Shown piece by piece: positions 1,342 through 52,365 of a stretch of DNA of 52,844 bases (the first letter of the stretch is position 1; the number at the start of each line of letters is the position of its first letter). A program made the translations under genes and the position numbers. A model generated the notes under the pieces. That model worked only from the letters and a program-made list of their open reading frames with translations. It was not told the DNA's origin and ran no database searches. Source of the DNA: an uncultured Methanosarcinales archaeon (GTDB lineage: Archaea > Nanobdellota > Nanobdellia > Woesearchaeales > GW2011-AR9); the NCBI GenBank assembly GCA_964510085.1, contig CAZEAB010000006.1, forward strand, positions 1-52,844. The letters are read 5' to 3'.

Positions 1342-1896
1342 CTACTCAATCGTCAATTTATTGATAATAACGTCCTCTAAAGGTTTATCCTGACTATCCT
1401 TAGTAACCTTACCAATTTTATCAACAACGTTCATTCCTTCAACAACTTTTCCAAAAACTGGATGTTTATCATCTAAGAAATTGTTGTCAACAGTATTAAT
1501 GAAAAATTGCGAACCACCCGTATTAGGACCAGCATTTGCCATACTAATAGTACCCCTACTATTCACATTTGAAGAAGTAAATTCATCTTTAATTTGATAT
1601 CCTGGACCACCAGTTCCCCACATATTCTTTTTAGCAACTTGTTTTGACAAAGGGTCTCCTCCTTGTATCATAAATCCATCAATAACTCGATGAAATCGTG
1701 TACCATCATAGAACCCTTCTTTTGCTAATTTTTCAAAATTACCTGTAGTGATAGGCATATCGTTCGCTAATTCAATTTTAATTATTCCTTGTGTTGTATC
1801 AAATGTTGCTGTTGTCATAGTATTTACCTCGCTTGTGCATCCTACTAAAAAGAGAACGCATAATATTATTAATATTTTTTTCATCATGGTAACCAC
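1342..1896 (-). CDS. Cyclophilin-type peptidyl-prolyl isomerase with lipoprotein-like signal
   Basis: FHRVIDGFMIQGGDP, SMANAGPNTGGSQFFIN, HPVFGKV; N-terminal MKK...LFLVGC; real start probably 1887 or 1884. Confidence 0.95.
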   Translation of the reverse strand: MVTMMKKILIILCVLFLVGCTSEVNTMTTATFDTTQGIIKIELANDMPITTGNFEKLAKEGFYDGTRFHRVIDGFMIQGGDPLSKQVAKKNMWGTGGPGYQIKDEFTSSNVNSRGTISMANAGPNTGGSQFFINTVDNNFLDDKHPVFGKVVEGMNVVDKIGKVTKDSQDKPLEDVIINKLTIE

Positions 1897-4798: not shown

Positions 4799-6298
4799 AT
4801 GGGCAGAGCAGTTGAAGGAAATCTTCTAACAATGCAAGAATTGGAAGCGAACAGGCTTCTTATACTTACAAAATATAAAAAGTACTTACAACATCAACTT
4901 TCTAAACTAGCAGATTATACCAATAAACTTGAATATCCACATATTGAAGATATTGGATTTGAATGCGAAGGGTGGTTTATTAATGATAAATTACTTCCAA
5001 ACCCTGTATATGAACAAGTGGTTAAATTAGTTCCAGATATTGGAAGGGAATTACTTTCATGCCAATGGGAAGTTCGAAATGAAAAAGACAATCTTATCAA
5101 ATTACAAGACCCATTACAACAAACAAATGAATGTGTTAAGGGAGTTTTCGCACCAATACAAGATGCTGCACAGAAATGCAATACAAAATTACTGATAATT
5201 GGTGGACATCCATTCTTTACTGCAGATCTTGCAAATACCATGATTACTAATTCTAAACGCCACCAAAAATTAATAGAATACATTGATTCATATGACACGA
5301 ATACTATTAACATCCCATTCGTAAATGGAGATGAAACTCGTCAAGGAATGATTTACGAGGGATATACGACCTCAATTCAAATTACAATTCGTGTATCCCC
5401 TATTTTTGCATCTTTATACCATGATGCATATTACTTAATAGCTCCTATTTTACTTGCAATGACAGCATATTCTCCAATAATTGAAGGGAAAGAAACACAT
5501 TCAGATAGTATGAGGGTACAAATAGTTGGAGATTCCTGTTACGGTTTTTCTGAAGAAGATAAAGCCGTTGGAATGCCAAGTAGATGGGGTCCTTTCCCTC
5601 CAATTTCTCAACCAGATACTGTTCCAAGTAAGTGGGCAAACCAAGATTTGTATAACTTATTAAGAAGCAGTAAAGTTCCAAATGGCGTTTCATTACATTT
5701 TGCAGAAGTTGCGGGTAAAGAAAAAGGACATTTACTTGTTACAGACACAGACTTAGAAATAGATCCTTTAGAGGGGTTTCCTTCTCCAATAATGTGGCCT
5801 TACGTAAAAATTCAACCATTTGGAATGAATGAGGGTGGTATTTTAATTGAACTTCGATTTATTGAAATGGTAAGAAAACAAGAAGAAATTTCATTACTTC
5901 TTCACTTCCTTGGAACTATGCTTGAAGTTGTTACTCATGATTTACATTTACAAAAGTTATCTCCATTACAATTAATTCACTTTAATGAAAACGAGAAAAC
6001 TTGTTCTTTACAAAATGCGTTATCATCAAACAAAGCAATCAATTGGCCACATAACGGTGAAGTAATTAAGCGGCCTGTAAAAGATATTCTTCGAGAACTT
6101 CTTGATAAAATGATTCCCCATTTCCATAAGAATGGACGAACTCCAGAAGAGATAGAAGAAATTTGTAATGTATTTGTTAACAGGGTAGGTCTTCGTATTA
6201 AAGGAGATTCTATTGAAGAATGTAATCCAACTGAAACAGCTGCTCAAGAAATGCGACGTAAAGGACCAACTCAAATGATAGAAGAATATTTATTTTAA
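4799..6298 (+). CDS. Divergent glutamate-cysteine ligase / carboxylate-amine ligase (GCS2-like)
   Basis: IGFECEGW, ELLSCQWE, GGHP, SIQITI, AMTAYSP and IELRFIE match the GCS2/YbdK motif order. Confidence 0.7.
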   Translation: MGRAVEGNLLTMQELEANRLLILTKYKKYLQHQLSKLADYTNKLEYPHIEDIGFECEGWFINDKLLPNPVYEQVVKLVPDIGRELLSCQWEVRNEKDNLIKLQDPLQQTNECVKGVFAPIQDAAQKCNTKLLIIGGHPFFTADLANTMITNSKRHQKLIEYIDSYDTNTINIPFVNGDETRQGMIYEGYTTSIQITIRVSPIFASLYHDAYYLIAPILLAMTAYSPIIEGKETHSDSMRVQIVGDSCYGFSEEDKAVGMPSRWGPFPPISQPDTVPSKWANQDLYNLLRSSKVPNGVSLHFAEVAGKEKGHLLVTDTDLEIDPLEGFPSPIMWPYVKIQPFGMNEGGILIELRFIEMVRKQEEISLLLHFLGTMLEVVTHDLHLQKLSPLQLIHFNENEKTCSLQNALSSNKAINWPHNGEVIKRPVKDILRELLDKMIPHFHKNGRTPEEIEEICNVFVNRVGLRIKGDSIEECNPTETAAQEMRRKGPTQMIEEYLF

Positions 6299-6303
6299 GA
6301 GAT

Positions 6304-7122
6304 TTACCTACAAAAATTTGCATTACTTTGTCCGTAACAAATGTTTTTAATTTCTGGACCAGTATATAATCTGTTGTGGATAGTTAAGTCGTCTAGTTTT
6401 CCACCAAAGTATCTATCACTATCTCCATCAGGACCATCCTTTCCGGCTTTTCCTAGGAATAATGTGTCCCATTTATCCTTGTTAATCTTATGTTCAATGG
6501 TTTCTCTACCAACTGAAATTCCATCAATAAATAGTTGCATGTATCCCCCATCTCTATTATCTAAAACTAAAGCCGCATGGTGCCACCCTGCTCCAGAGAA
6601 AGGCGTTGAAATTAATTTACTGTTTCGTGCATCTCCTAAATATGCTGTAAGAACTCCCCTTTCATATTTTTGGCCCTTAATGTGGTTACCCATTGAAACA
6701 TGAAATTCTTGTTCTGGTCCCCATCCATCTCCAGCAAATTGTCTATGTTTTTTCTCATTCATATCCCCTTGCCACACCATGTGTGCTCTCTTTCTATTTG
6801 TTAAATCAGTAGATTTAAACCAAAACATAATGGTAGACATATCCATTTCTTGTAAATGTAAACTAGATGTCTGGACATAATTTGTTTGTCCATTAAAATG
6901 CCACGCTTTAGTCCCTTTATATGTTCGTCTAGAATGGGTACCAACTTCATACAAAACACCTTTATGGTTTGTTGATGCATCCATTTCCATATCTAACTCA
7001 AATACAGTATCTGAAATAATAGTAGTTACAGCTCCTTGGATAGAAGTCCATCCATTTGCTACTGCAATAACAAAAACAAGCCCAATAACCGCAGCAGTAA
7101 TTATTTTTCGTTCATCCATCAT
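6304..7122 (-). CDS. Secreted or membrane-anchored LamG (ConA-like lectin) domain protein
   Basis: N-terminal hydrophobic helix; TIMFWFK, WHHAALV, LFIDG, FGGKLDDLTIHNRLY. Confidence 0.85.
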   Translation of the reverse strand: MMDERKIITAAVIGLVFVIAVANGWTSIQGAVTTIISDTVFELDMEMDASTNHKGVLYEVGTHSRRTYKGTKAWHFNGQTNYVQTSSLHLQEMDMSTIMFWFKSTDLTNRKRAHMVWQGDMNEKKHRQFAGDGWGPEQEFHVSMGNHIKGQKYERGVLTAYLGDARNSKLISTPFSGAGWHHAALVLDNRDGGYMQLFIDGISVGRETIEHKINKDKWDTLFLGKAGKDGPDGDSDRYFGGKLDDLTIHNRLYTGPEIKNICYGQSNANFCR

Positions 7123-7172
7123 TAAAGAGAATAATCTTTTGGTATATAAAGATTTACCTCTTCACAATTATT

Positions 7173-7239
7173 GGGAGCAGCACCCTGACGTAGTCAAGGC
7201 GGGCACTTGGAGAGTGCGAATCCGCCGTACCCTGCTCCT
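7173..7239. ncRNA. Candidate structured non-coding motif, copy A
   Basis: GC-rich intergenic multi-stem: GGGAGCAG/CTGCTCCT, TGAC/GTCA, GGCGG/CCGCC, GCACT/AGTGC; covaries with 24367-24436. Confidence 0.65.
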
Positions 7240-7251
7240 AATTTGGATAAT

Positions 7252-7788
7252 TCAACCAAACATAATCTCTTTTTTCTTCTTTTCTAAGAATTGATATACT
7301 GTTTTATGCATGCTTCCTTGTAATAACATTGCAACGGCTTGACGTGCTAGAGACACCTGTCCTGATTCTCCAATAATACCAACAGTTTTTCCATATACAG
7401 AAACATGGCAATCAGTTAAACGCTCAATTTCTTCTCGAGACTTACCACCTTTTCCAATAACTCTTCCTTTAAGTCGTTGTAAAGTATTTTTACTTTTTCC
7501 AGAAATATCTTTCATATCAATTAATTCAAGAGCATAATCTGACTTTAACAGCAACAACGCAATTTTTGGGTTAAAACCACGTGCAATTGCCTTAACAATT
7601 TCTTTAGTGGTATATAAATCAAGACCGTCATCACCAGTAATAGTAACGTCTCCCTCTTTTGATATATCTAAAGAACTTTTTGTAGCCAGTTCTATTTCTT
7701 TTTTGGTGTTTCCATTAGTTCCAATTAAGACAGCTACCCGTTCTTCAGGTATTTTTAGTTCATATGAAAATTCTTCTTCATTCATCAT
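7252..7788 (-). CDS. KH-domain pre-rRNA processing protein (Pno1/Dim2 family)
   Basis: Two KH GxxG loops (LIGTNG, VIGKGG); downstream of RIO1. Confidence 0.93.
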   Translation of the reverse strand: MMNEEEFSYELKIPEERVAVLIGTNGNTKKEIELATKSSLDISKEGDVTITGDDGLDLYTTKEIVKAIARGFNPKIALLLLKSDYALELIDMKDISGKSKNTLQRLKGRVIGKGGKSREEIERLTDCHVSVYGKTVGIIGESGQVSLARQAVAMLLQGSMHKTVYQFLEKKKKEIMFG

Positions 7789-24302: not shown

Positions 24303-24366
24303 TTATAGGTTATTTCTTAGTTTGTTTTTAAATTTTCTCAATGAAACATGTATTTAGTTCAATAGG

Positions 24367-24436
24367 GTTAGCACCGCCAATTGAGGCGCATTTTGTGAAG
24401 AGTATCACAAAATCTACCGCGCCGTGCTGTGCTAAC
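24367..24436. ncRNA. Candidate structured non-coding motif, copy B
   Basis: GTTAGCAC/GTGCTAAC, GGCGC/GCGCC, ATTTTGTGA/TCACAAAAT; same architecture as 7173-7239. Confidence 0.65.
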
Positions 24437-24507
24437 ATGGAAGGCGAACTAAATCAGTATCAATGAACAGGCAAATTTTATAAAGAACACAATAAACATA
24501 TGCATTA

Positions 24508-52293: not shown

Positions 52294-52365
52294 AGCCTCT
52301 GCCGAGATTTGAACTCGGGACCTGCGCTTTACGAGAGCGCCGCTATACCACTAAGCCACAGAGGC
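52294..52365 (-). tRNA. tRNA-Thr(CGT)
   Basis: Acceptor GCCTCTG/CAGAGGC, anticodon arm GCGCT-CTCGTAA-AGCGC, T-arm CCGAG-TTCAAAT-CTCGG. Confidence 0.96.

Follow-up and report, generated by a model that had tools for sequence, protein, structure and literature searches.

Two structured motifs in an archaeal contig are probable members of a MITE family with IS5-type ends and a conserved folded core

The window (the whole 52,844-nt stretch of archaeal DNA analysed here) carries two GC-rich islands, designated copy A and copy B, each of which lies upstream of a minus-strand gene: copy A at 41-51 nt from the start codon of a Laminin_G_3 gene, and copy B at 65 nt from that of the gene for IF-2/aIF5B (Table 1). 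An earlier sequence-only reading had noticed this arrangement and had proposed a structured motif in two covarying copies; the position upstream of the two genes was confirmed, and both sequences stand exactly as it quoted them at 7173-7239 and 24367-24436. Its consensus, applied as a pattern, occurs at exactly two places in the 1.06-Mb genome (reversed-pattern control, 0). The supposition of only two copies had to be given up: a covariance model built from copies A and B and their relatives (R1) detected 43 copies in the same genome at E≤0.01, of which only A and B lie in the window. All 43 matches lie on the model strand, with E-values from 4 × 10−24 to 5.5 × 10−4, and the density is about one copy per 25 kb. 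The element measures 114-135 bp, or ~200 bp at most with insertions, and is non-coding, any given frame being open in at most 17 of the 43 copies.

Table 1. Features of copies A and B and of the adjacent TATA-like boxes, in window coordinates; paired elements follow the predicted fold.
Feature	Position	Strand	Remarks
TATA-like box, palindromic, GTATATAAAG	7143..7152	.	between Laminin_G_3 start (7122) and copy A
Copy A, full R1 match	7163..7243	+	63.6 bits
A, P1 5' strand ATTGGGAGCAG	7170..7180	+	pairs with 7232-7242
A, 5' junction CACC-CU	7181..7186	+	family (C/G)GCC-CU; A deviates
A, P2 side hairpin GAC-GUA-GUC	7187..7195	+	middle pair covaries in family
A, junction AA	7196..7197	+	family GA, conserved at ≥90%
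A, P3 base 5' strand GGCGG	7198..7202	+	pairs with 7222-7226 (CCGCC)
A, P3 apical hairpin GCACU-UGGAG-AGUGC	7203..7217	+	sequence variable, pairing conserved
A, 3'-side bulge GAAU	7218..7221	+	
A, P3 base 3' strand CCGCC	7222..7226	+	
A, 3' junction GUACC	7227..7231	+	family GUGCC; A deviates
A, P1 3' strand CTGCTCCTAAT	7232..7242	+	
aIF5B TATA-like box (TTTTTAAATTT on +)	24324..24336	-	conserved in relatives; between gene and copy B; outside element
B, left target-site duplication TCAATGAA	24338..24345	.	8 bp, 8/8 identical
Copy B, whole 114-bp MITE	24346..24459	+	R1 match 24357-24440, 48.2 bits
B, left terminal arm ACATGTATTTAGTTC	24346..24360	+	inverted repeat of 24446-24459
B, inner P1 5' strand GTTAGCAC	24367..24374	+	pairs with 24429-24436
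B, 5' junction CGCC-AAUU-GA	24375..24384	+	type-2 core, without P2 hairpin
B, P3 base 5' strand GGCGC	24385..24389	+	pairs with 24419-24423 (GCGCC)
B, P3 apical hairpin AUUUUGUGA-AGAGUA-UCACAAAAU	24390..24413	+	same type in other genera's copies
B, 3'-side bulge CUACC	24414..24418	+	
B, P3 base 3' strand GCGCC	24419..24423	+	
B, 3' junction GUGCU	24424..24428	+	
B, inner P1 3' strand GTGCTAAC	24429..24436	+	
B, right terminal arm GAACTAAATCAGTA	24446..24459	+	
B, right target-site duplication TCAATGAA	24460..24467	.	

Copy B is a recognisable insertion, whose whole arms agree at 32 of 39 aligned positions. Copy A we take to be older, decaying or without arms: terminal inverted repeats are not recognisable at its ends, leaving an 11-bp closing stem only, and its right arm can be no longer than 12 nt because the stop codon of the KH gene comes next. 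Its single duplication candidate, a 9-mer with one mismatch, is at chance level, and three G-to-A changes fall at positions conserved elsewhere in the family. Contigs from four other samples (DNA runs) cover A and B, and no joint skips either of them, a result that says nothing on expression or on insertion polymorphism. Comparison with the genomes of relatives revealed empty sites at both loci; the region upstream of aIF5B is element-free in G001 and G022, and the Laminin_G_3 gene and copy A are both missing between the same neighbours in G001. Furthermore, G188 has acquired a MITE independently, in inverted orientation and flanked by a 9-bp duplication of its own, ~3 nt from the corresponding conserved aIF5B TATA region, which in the window lies 30 nt before the ATG.

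Many copies possess inverted arms of ~35 bp that end GG...CC, with 8-9-bp target duplications on either side. Of 56 copies in five relatives (those of the 60 loci with flanks of at least 40 nt), 13 have an exact 9-mer repeated on both sides at fixed offsets, compared with 1.6% of shuffled controls. The excess over expectation is weak in the genome of the window itself, where a 9-mer with at most one mismatch flanks 13 of the 43 copies (four exact) compared with 17% of shuffles, and about 6-7 of these duplications are convincing. Two relatives, G189 and G022, contain IS5-family insertion sequences (ISs) of ~0.95 kb whose ends the arms match. The IS of G189 is 989 bp long, has the ends GGCTCCGTAGAAT.../...TTTCTACAGAGCC and a 9-bp duplication, GGAAAAAAC, and encodes a transposase of 336 amino acids that matches PF01609 (DDE_Tnp_1; E=2.5 × 10−15) and the NCBIfam IS5 model NF033579 (142.5 bits; cut-off, 140). 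The IS of G022 (934 bp; ends GGCTCTGTCCAGAAT) is decayed, and its right end and the MITE arms have 27-28 of 36 positions in common, the inner P1 GTATACTG included. Their size, GGCT... ends and 9-bp duplication would place these parent ISs in the IS903-like group within IS5. The same 18-mer IS end was found 27 times in G188, forming ten inverted pairs (judged by eye) 124-195 bp apart, with the others unpaired. An IS5 transposase was present in two of the five genomes searched and was found in neither G001, G188 nor the genome of the window; the mobilising enzyme therefore lies outside those three assemblies. ISL3 was also considered as a parent for the GGCTCT ends and was set aside, PF01610 being present in none of the five genomes. 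A search of the window's own genome for a gene-carrying 'split core' returned truncated remnants only. The core is absent from both parent ISs and is common to MITEs with at least three end types, a pattern that would not be expected if an IS had merely lost its interior.

On the basis of these ends and duplications, we propose that the elements are non-autonomous and that an IS5-family DDE transposase acts on them in trans; it would recognise the GG(C)...(G)CC terminal inverted repeats, move the element by cut-and-paste and leave the 8-9-bp target duplication. The element plan is two inverted ~34-bp copies of the IS end around a ~55-nt GC-rich core foreign to the IS, and the surviving copies occupy short gaps, some bounded by a stop codon and the promoter that follows, others by two divergent promoters.

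Of 40 other genomes in the same archaeal family, the R1 scan detected copies in 18 (1-18 each); positives numbered 3 among 150 genomes of an order-wide sample and 7 among 150 genomes of a phylum-wide sample, these seven all listed as the same family or order. The distribution among relatives is patchy, with very few copies beyond the family. Seven genomes with a lone match were inspected, of which five had given one match each in the family scan; in all of them the match still has the MITE form, and it does not sit at a conserved locus. A scan of genome contigs for the core pattern gave at least 113 stretches; among the matches listed, nearly all are single and from GC-rich bacteria, and three loci, all from one archaeal record, are real. 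The single bacterial matches are read as chance, at a rate higher than had been estimated, and the scan as uninformative on distribution. No match to the element was obtained in the viral contigs, plasmids and phages searched. The elements thus show the features by which MITEs are recognised, being small, non-coding, dispersed and patchy, with empty orthologous sites and with ends common to an autonomous IS.

The core strand that is predicted to fold (the + strand of the window for A and B) would form a closing stem continuing the arms, an optional hairpin P2 that tolerates large insertions, and P3, a 5-bp stem with a bulged apical hairpin. Copies A and B both fold better than their shuffles, whichever strand is taken (z=−2.9 to −3.8). 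In an alignment of 30 copies, 89.8% of cells pair compared with 67.7% in shuffles, and double-sided changes occur in 20 of the 26 pairs. The corresponding values for the 44-row alignment of the window's own genome (A4) are 93.2% and 68.8%, with double-sided changes in 23 of 26 pairs, a count that includes the 44th row, a weak reverse-strand match left out of the wobble and junction-conservation tallies; when the partner is slid, 30-54% of the cells in this alignment pair. Alignments A4 to A6, the 44-row one included, were fitted to the model, which favours the model's structure. The compensatory stem differences that the sequence-only reading saw between its two copies are therefore real and hold across the family on both the 30 copies and the 44 rows; homologues and covariation, whose absence it had named as refuting, are both plentiful. 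The base of P3 illustrates this, occurring as GGCGG:CCGCC, GCCGG:CCGGC, GGUGG:CCACC, GUCGU:ACGAC, GGCAG:CUGCC, GCUGG:CCAGC and GCCCG:CGGGC. An alternative register at the 3' junction, pairing GGCGC with GUGCY, was rejected, since column 29 would then face many A.C pairs and the chosen register covaries. The junction nucleotides (G/C)GCC-CU, GA and GUGCC, ~14 positions in all, are at least 90% conserved, compared with 40-60% for the arms. Type-2 cores have no P2 hairpin at all, apical loops accept insertions of 50-80 nt, and the expansion modules of P2 and P3 have no occurrence outside the elements.

Wobble pairs were used to assign the folded strand. Within the stems, G.U exceeds A.C by 38 to 10 over 18 columns in the window's own genome and by 29 to 14 in 57 distinct copies of five other genomes (60 rows, identical ones tallied once), and the + strand is therefore probably the folded one. 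The asymmetry was not seen in a smaller set of 24 distinct rows (27 before identical rows were merged; G.U 8, A.C 6), nor for the P3 helix of the 57-copy replicate set (6 and 8). In the outer arms, G.U and A.C number 21 and 18; the tally covers 40 copies, the other three being truncated or carrying large insertions, and is confined to arm alignments of at least 18 positions at 70% identity or more. Wobble bias alone cannot separate RNA from DNA, because G.T is the least harmful mismatch in single-stranded DNA.

Comparison with known RNA classes gave no identity for the core. Rfam 15 found two tRNAs in the whole window, both elsewhere, and around A, B and 11 other copies its best scores were 10-20 bits against thresholds of 37-70, so that the absence of a known Rfam family, as the sequence-only reading had supposed, was upheld at threshold. 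A tRNA (split, permuted or intron-bearing) was considered because type-1 cores combine a 7-11-bp closing stem with a T-arm-like GGCGG...GAAUCCGCC; ARAGORN found no tRNA at either site, the Rfam tRNA model was likewise empty, no bulge-helix-bulge could be drawn, and type-2 cores are without the T-loop-like letters. H/ACA and C/D sRNAs and a hammerhead-like three-way junction were rejected on defining boxes that are absent or unconserved, as judged by eye against the consensus sequences. In a kink-turn, the L7Ae-binding motif, a 3-nt bulge precedes tandem sheared G.A/A.G pairs that adjoin a canonical stem; in the alignments, likewise inspected by eye, the conserved GA lies next to P3, and the opposite strand has GUG where GA after a 3-nt bulge would be expected. 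An integron attC site was also dismissed, the end words being in the wrong order and the copies dispersed, with duplications.

Taken as a whole, these data are best explained if the two motifs are homologous members of a MITE family with a selectively maintained structured core, to which we assign a probability of about 0.8. Among the identities that the sequence-only reading had put forward, the mobile structured repeat is thus the one supported, by the copies, the duplications and the ends, while the riboswitch-like leader of Laminin_G_3 and aIF5B fails on the TATA-like boxes and the empty sites and is very improbable. Such a leader would account for the placement of both motifs 41-65 nt upstream of minus-strand start codons and for the CGCC that can be drawn with two pairing partners. 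At both loci, however, a box separates motif from gene, so that the transcript excludes the motif. In addition, the wobble bias points to the + strand as the folded one, whereas the genes are on the - strand, and the orthologous sites in G001 and G022 are empty. The proposed CGCC:GGCG switch shows no double-change pairs, its first pair failing in 6 of 30 cells, and it breaks whenever the GGCGS strand changes. The other 41 copies adjoin unrelated genes in both orientations, and relative to co-directional neighbours (crude ORF calls of at least 90 amino acids) 11 copies have the same and 11 the opposite orientation, so that orientation offers no hint of a sense transcript being important to the host. 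Least probable of all is a chance resemblance or a short protein-coding gene. Short + strand ORFs do span the copies (7139-7294 and 24341-24466), yet the 43 matches at the E-values given above, set against an empty reversed-pattern control, are not expected by chance; at most 17 copies have any one frame open, and the substitutions track base pairing rather than codons.

Within the MITE reading, we infer that conservation of the core reflects selection on persistence or spread of the element and not regulation of neighbouring genes. We give an even chance to the core acting as RNA on read-through transcripts, as a processing, stability or protein-binding module. The narrower proposal, of an RNA function not described before (a small self-cleaving ribozyme, say, or a specific protein-binding scaffold) that spreads through small-genome archaea between borrowed IS5 ends, is a tentative one with odds well against it; an RNA activity would explain why the core outlives the arms, why the ends differ and why ~14 junction nucleotides are nearly invariant. 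We place at the same low level the idea that the core works as single-stranded DNA, folding during replication or transposition to aid end pairing or to offer a host-factor site. This would suit a core that invariably occupies the middle of the element, the lack of orientation bias relative to transcription and a strand wobble bias that fits G.T in DNA equally well; moreover, elements of only ~120 bp are short for protein-mediated synapsis of the ends, given the stiffness of DNA. The parent ISs nevertheless do without the core, the outer arms would fold too and yet show no strand bias (21 versus 18), and we know of no need of IS5-family transposition for internal sequence or single-stranded intermediates. 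Slightly less probable again is the view that the core forms a family of small RNA genes in its own right, or a self-cleaving or protein-binding RNA of a new kind, with the IS ends as its vehicle and with selection keeping the activity of the RNA rather than the DNA element. This view is favoured by a core that is common to elements with different ends and missing from the ISs, by conserved junctions around variable helices, by apical insertions like those of many catalytic or scaffold RNAs, by arm-less copies that keep an intact core (copy A, and C14:4321 with the best score, 89 bits) and by a TATA-like box 29 nt upstream of the first paired base of copy A. That box is palindromic, however, and serves Laminin_G_3 equally; in addition, the arms show no conserved promoter or terminator, P2 is missing altogether from type-2 cores, the lone matches in seven genomes still have the MITE form at no conserved locus, and no Rfam ribozyme or other RNA family matches even at E≤10.

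The MITE family recalls several known systems. Like REP/REPIN and IS200/IS605-type palindromic elements, it consists of GC-rich, strand-specific hairpins dispersed in intergenic DNA; to our knowledge those elements do not combine terminal inverted repeats with target duplications and rely on HUH (Y1) enzymes, whereas here 8-9-bp duplications and DDE-type ends are found. With the IS5-family ISs of G189 and G022 it has in common ends that begin GGCTC and 8-9-bp duplications, although the window copies encode nothing and hold a core that those ISs lack. A resemblance to bcr1 of the Bacillus cereus group (~155 bp) lies in a dispersed, non-coding MITE-like repeat with non-conserved genomic distribution and short direct repeats. 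The bcr1 repeat is bounded by 5-bp direct repeats, is transcribed, and is kept by compensatory changes in a branched 'cruciform-like' fold of two stem-loops at the RNA level (PMC3184786). In contrast to this bacterial repeat, the present family occurs in an archaeon with a 1-Mb genome, has 8-9-bp duplications and IS5-family ends, and is known from sequence alone. Correia/nemis (Neisseria), ERIC (enterobacteria) and RUP (pneumococcus) likewise pair terminal inverted repeats with target duplications and occur in many copies between genes. Classical bacterial MITEs are described as about 100-160 bp long, often beside gene starts, forming long hairpins when transcribed and in some cases carrying promoters or an IHF site (PMC3184786). 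The interiors of Correia/nemis, ERIC and RUP are mostly the two IS ends, whereas here an asymmetric GC-rich core is foreign to the parent IS and better conserved than the ends. A survey of DPANN MITEs reports very high densities in some genomes, with 105 per Mb in one Woesearchaeal genome (PMC11602168), and MITEs as such are therefore expected in an organism of this kind. The available text of that survey gives no conserved core, fold or IS partner for its MITEs, and its supplementary lists may include the family (PMC11602168). We found no description of this core in the literature listings searched or in the accessible parts of PMC11602168, PMC13343696 and PMC3184786.

These results account for two GC-rich islands that looked odd: both belong to a mobile family that is abundant in this very compact archaeal genome, and both are struck from the list of candidate riboswitches. 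The mobile elements of these archaea have barely been described, and for one of them the element, its parent IS type and a covariance model are now defined, together with its insertion habits, directly upstream of promoters or directly after stop codons. The core is foreign to the parent IS, compensatory changes maintain it, and its conservation exceeds that of the transposase-binding ends. These observations suggest that some MITEs bear a cargo module, of RNA or of folded DNA, with its own function; should that function be catalysis or protein binding, the core would represent a new class of RNA, discovered via its vehicle.

In the window's own genome (1,059,990 bases, 33.8% G+C), the consensus proposed by the sequence-only reading matched only copies A and B when used as a pattern, with a reversed-pattern control giving 0 matches, and the sequences that it had quoted for both copies were exact. 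Its count of two copies in this genome did not hold: R1, a covariance model of the core built from a 30-copy alignment (A3) after the structure had been annotated and checked, returned 43 matches at E<=0.01, all on one model strand. Truncated or internally deleted element remnants are left unscored by R1 (C11:34198, C11:35396 and C4:56373; remnant types in this genome are a 5' junction without P3, the 5-bp stem with a bulged apical hairpin, or 3' halves alone), so the true insertion number exceeds 43. A relaxed pattern (CRCC...GGCGS...SCGCCGYRCY), applied to 61 genomes comprising the own genome and 60 relatives, matched in 11, with almost none for the reversed control. In samples of the family, order and phylum, R1 matched 18 of 40 other genomes of the same taxonomic family (1-18 matches each), 3 of 150 across the order and 7 of 150 across the phylum, the last all listed as the same family or order. 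Seven genomes, five of which had yielded a single match when the family was scanned, were each inspected at one match. All of them showed MITE-like copies (resembling miniature inverted-repeat transposable elements) at unrelated loci, one being a nested insertion in which an element lies within the core of another; in none of the seven was the core seen as a conserved gene of its own.

The core occurs in two types. Type 1, represented by copy A, reads (C/G)GCC-CU-(small hairpin)-GA-GGCGG-(hairpin)-GAAU-CCGCC-GUGCY, and type 2, represented by copy B, reads CGCC-AAUGGA-GGCGC-... without the small hairpin. Across A3, 89.8% of cells were paired, compared with 67.7% in shuffles and 33-52% with partners slid, and both sides had changed in 20 of 26 pairs; an alignment of 44 own-genome rows (one of them weak and from the reverse strand), whose figures are flattered by its fitting to the model, gave 93.2% versus 68.8% in shuffles, with 23 of 26 pairs changed on both sides. 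Covariation was clearest in the 5-bp base of P3 (GGCGG:CCGCC, GCCGG:CCGGC, GGUGG:CCACC, GUCGU:ACGAC, GGCAG:CUGCC, GCUGG:CCAGC, GCCCG:CGGGC and GGCGC:GCGCC). Conservation was at least 90% in the junctions, at GCC-CU(G), (C)GA(G) and (C)GUGCC, versus 40-60% in the arms. The switch suggested earlier, in which the upstream CGCC pairs with GGCG, showed no double change, was broken at its first pair in 6 of 30 cells, and was not restored where GGCG varies; there is thus no evidence for it. P2, an optional side hairpin, and the P3 loop tolerate insertions of 50-80 nt, themselves folded and found only inside these elements. Among the long forms, a module ACGGGAA..UAUCCCGUUAAGC is common to three copies and another, GCAAGAUAGCGAAG..., to two, neither occurring anywhere else in the own genome; two further copies share the same ~60-nt P3-loop insertion, which shows that copying has also involved expanded variants.

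Coordinates of the elements, their parent insertion sequences (IS) and the tRNA genes of the window (C, contigs; L, loci in relatives' genomes)
Feature	Location	Strand	Details
Copy A	7163-7243	plus	
Copy B, whole element	24346-24459	plus	114 bp
Copy B, direct repeats	24338-24345 and 24460-24467		TCAATGAA on both sides
tRNA-Cys(GCA)	7-80	minus	Rfam and ARAGORN
tRNA-Thr(CGU)	52294-52365	minus	Rfam and ARAGORN
G189 IS, 989 bp, autonomous	L232 1076-2064 (G189:C19)		ends GGCTCCGTAGAAT... and ...TTTCTACAGAGCC; 9-bp duplication GGAAAAAAC
G022 IS, 934 bp, decayed (frame with stops)	L233 1376-2309 (G022:C8)		ends GGCTCTGTCCAGAAT; duplication TAATCTAT
Long forms, own genome	C4:77012-77160, C3:61900-62075, C5:5500-5710, C15:20902-21026, C7:37250-37372		branched insert in place of the small P2 hairpin
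P3 apical-loop insertion, own genome	C10:5855-5994 and C15:8328-8466		same ~60-nt folded insertion
Nested insertion	L238 (G014:C43) ~1470-1740		type-2 element inside another family element's core (P3)

In many copies the core caps a pair of inverted arms, ~35 bp long, with GG at the start and CC at the end, and direct repeats of 8-10 bp lie on either side. Allowing up to one mismatch, a 9-mer recurred at matching offsets in 13 of the 43 own-genome copies versus 17% of shuffled controls (4 exact; about 6-7 judged convincing), and exact 9-mers were present in 13 of 56 copies from five relatives versus 1.6% of shuffles, the left one always 16-18 nt ahead of the R1 match and the right one 23-26 nt beyond it (one at 10 and 17). 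No insertion polymorphism was seen in contigs from other samples. The 18-mer end GGCTCTGTAGAAARTCTC has 27 occurrences in the relative G188 at up to 3 mismatches, of which 10 inverted pairs, matched by eye and 124-195 bp apart, are MITEs and the rest are unpaired. ISL3 (PF01610), considered as the parent, was found in 0 of 5 genomes searched. PF01609 was found in 2 of 5 (G189 and G022); no PF01609 gene was found in the own genome, G001 or G188, and the enzyme is therefore elsewhere or unassembled. The G189 IS encodes an intact 336-aa transposase (NCBIfam IS5-family NF033579, 142.5 bits against a cut-off of 140). Both ISs have duplications of 8-9 bp and ends that match the MITE ends, the right end of the G022 IS and the arms of the most frequent MITE type agreeing at 27-28 of 36 positions, through the inner-closing-stem GTATACTG. 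With its filters off, R1 found no core in either IS (best 10.8 bits); each MITE is thus built of two inverted IS-end copies, with a core between them that comes from another source. The element is most likely an IS5-family-derived MITE family; judging from ends, duplications and partners, a DDE transposase acting in trans would move it by a 9-bp staggered cut.

Within the window, R1 scored copy A at 63.6 bits, copy B at 48.2 bits and nothing else, and, whichever strand is taken, the fold of each copy is stronger than in dinucleotide shuffles (z -2.9 to -3.8). The direct repeats of copy B, together with arms that are identical at 32 of 39 positions as inverted repeats, delimit it as a whole element. 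Copy A has an 11-bp stem only, the stop codon of the KH-domain gene (7252-7254) leaves its right arm at most 12 nt, and three G-to-A changes (CACC, AA for GA, GUACC) fall at positions otherwise at least 90% conserved; we take it to be an old or truncated copy. The neighbouring minus-strand genes were as previously named, Laminin_G_3 and IF-2/aIF5B; on their other sides the copies are flanked by the KH-domain gene and by a gene for a DUF4234 membrane protein. TATA-like boxes lie at 7143-7152 and 24324-24336, and the start codons of Laminin_G_3 and aIF5B follow ~29-30 nt beyond, a spacing that suggests that mRNAs of this organism have no leader or almost none.

By our own crude gene calls, 16 of the 43 own-genome copies lie between divergent genes and 5 between convergent genes, with 11 co-directional sense and 11 antisense, and thus no orientation bias. 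Between co-directional genes, where the R1 match ends ~0-30 nt from the upstream stop and at least 40 nt from the next start, copies sit just outside the next promoter. A conserved leader of the neighbouring gene was rejected for both copies, since relatives have the orthologous sites without them: the aIF5B start and TATA region (TGTTTTTAAATTT) is conserved in G001 and G022 with no element after it, and in G001, of the same genus, the KH gene abuts the homologue of window gene 4799-6298, the Laminin_G_3 gene and copy A both being missing. The Laminin_G_3 gene (window 6304-7243 with copy A) may be a recent gain beside the element. R1 gave no match at the aIF5B locus of G189 or G012. In G188 the same spot, within a few bases, holds a different family member in inverted orientation, flanked by a separate 9-bp duplication (TAAGCTACT); L219 (G188:C4) at ~2100-2300 and window 24324-24467 thus present two opposite-oriented members, independently inserted in two genera with their own duplications. 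These independent insertions suggest that landing just upstream of promoters, as at the conserved aIF5B TATA region, is either preferred or uniquely tolerated.

The own-genome stems held 38 G.U-type versus 10 A.C-type pairs on the model strand, distributed across 18 columns in about 25 copies; an A.C-type pair there would be G.U on the other strand. A replicate set drawn from five other genomes (57 distinct copies) gave 29 versus 14, a smaller mixed set 8 versus 6, the P3 helix alone in the replicate 6 versus 8, and the outer arms 21 versus 18 (counted only in the well-aligned arms of 40 of the 43 copies). These counts are moderate evidence that the core and inner stem would fold on the model strand, which at copies A and B alike is the plus strand of the window. 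We read the outer arms as constrained only as double-stranded ends.

No known RNA family was recognized. On the window, ARAGORN and Rfam at gathering thresholds reported only the same two tRNAs, neither at copy A or B; around the copies, Rfam at E<=10 gave chance-level matches only (10-16 bits versus thresholds of 37-70), and the long forms were not recognized either. The core description was not found in Rfam or in the literature searched, which lay outside the sequence lists of PMC11602168; likeness to K-turn, H/ACA, hammerhead and IS903 was judged on general consensus features. The Bacillus cereus group offers the closest described likeness, bcr1: this ~155-bp repeat is dispersed, has short direct repeats and keeps a branched RNA fold through compensatory changes (reviewed in PMC3184786). 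A survey of prokaryotic MITEs reports very high densities in some DPANN genomes, one of them Woesearchaeal (PMC11602168).

From the aligned copies, the core appears to be kept by selection on the fold of one strand. The wobble-pair asymmetry is compatible with RNA and single-stranded DNA alike and cannot separate them. Two less favoured readings are that the core acts as folded DNA in transposition, or that it has an autonomous RNA activity. We prefer the reading, at about one chance in two, that the core is an RNA module carried on read-through transcripts.
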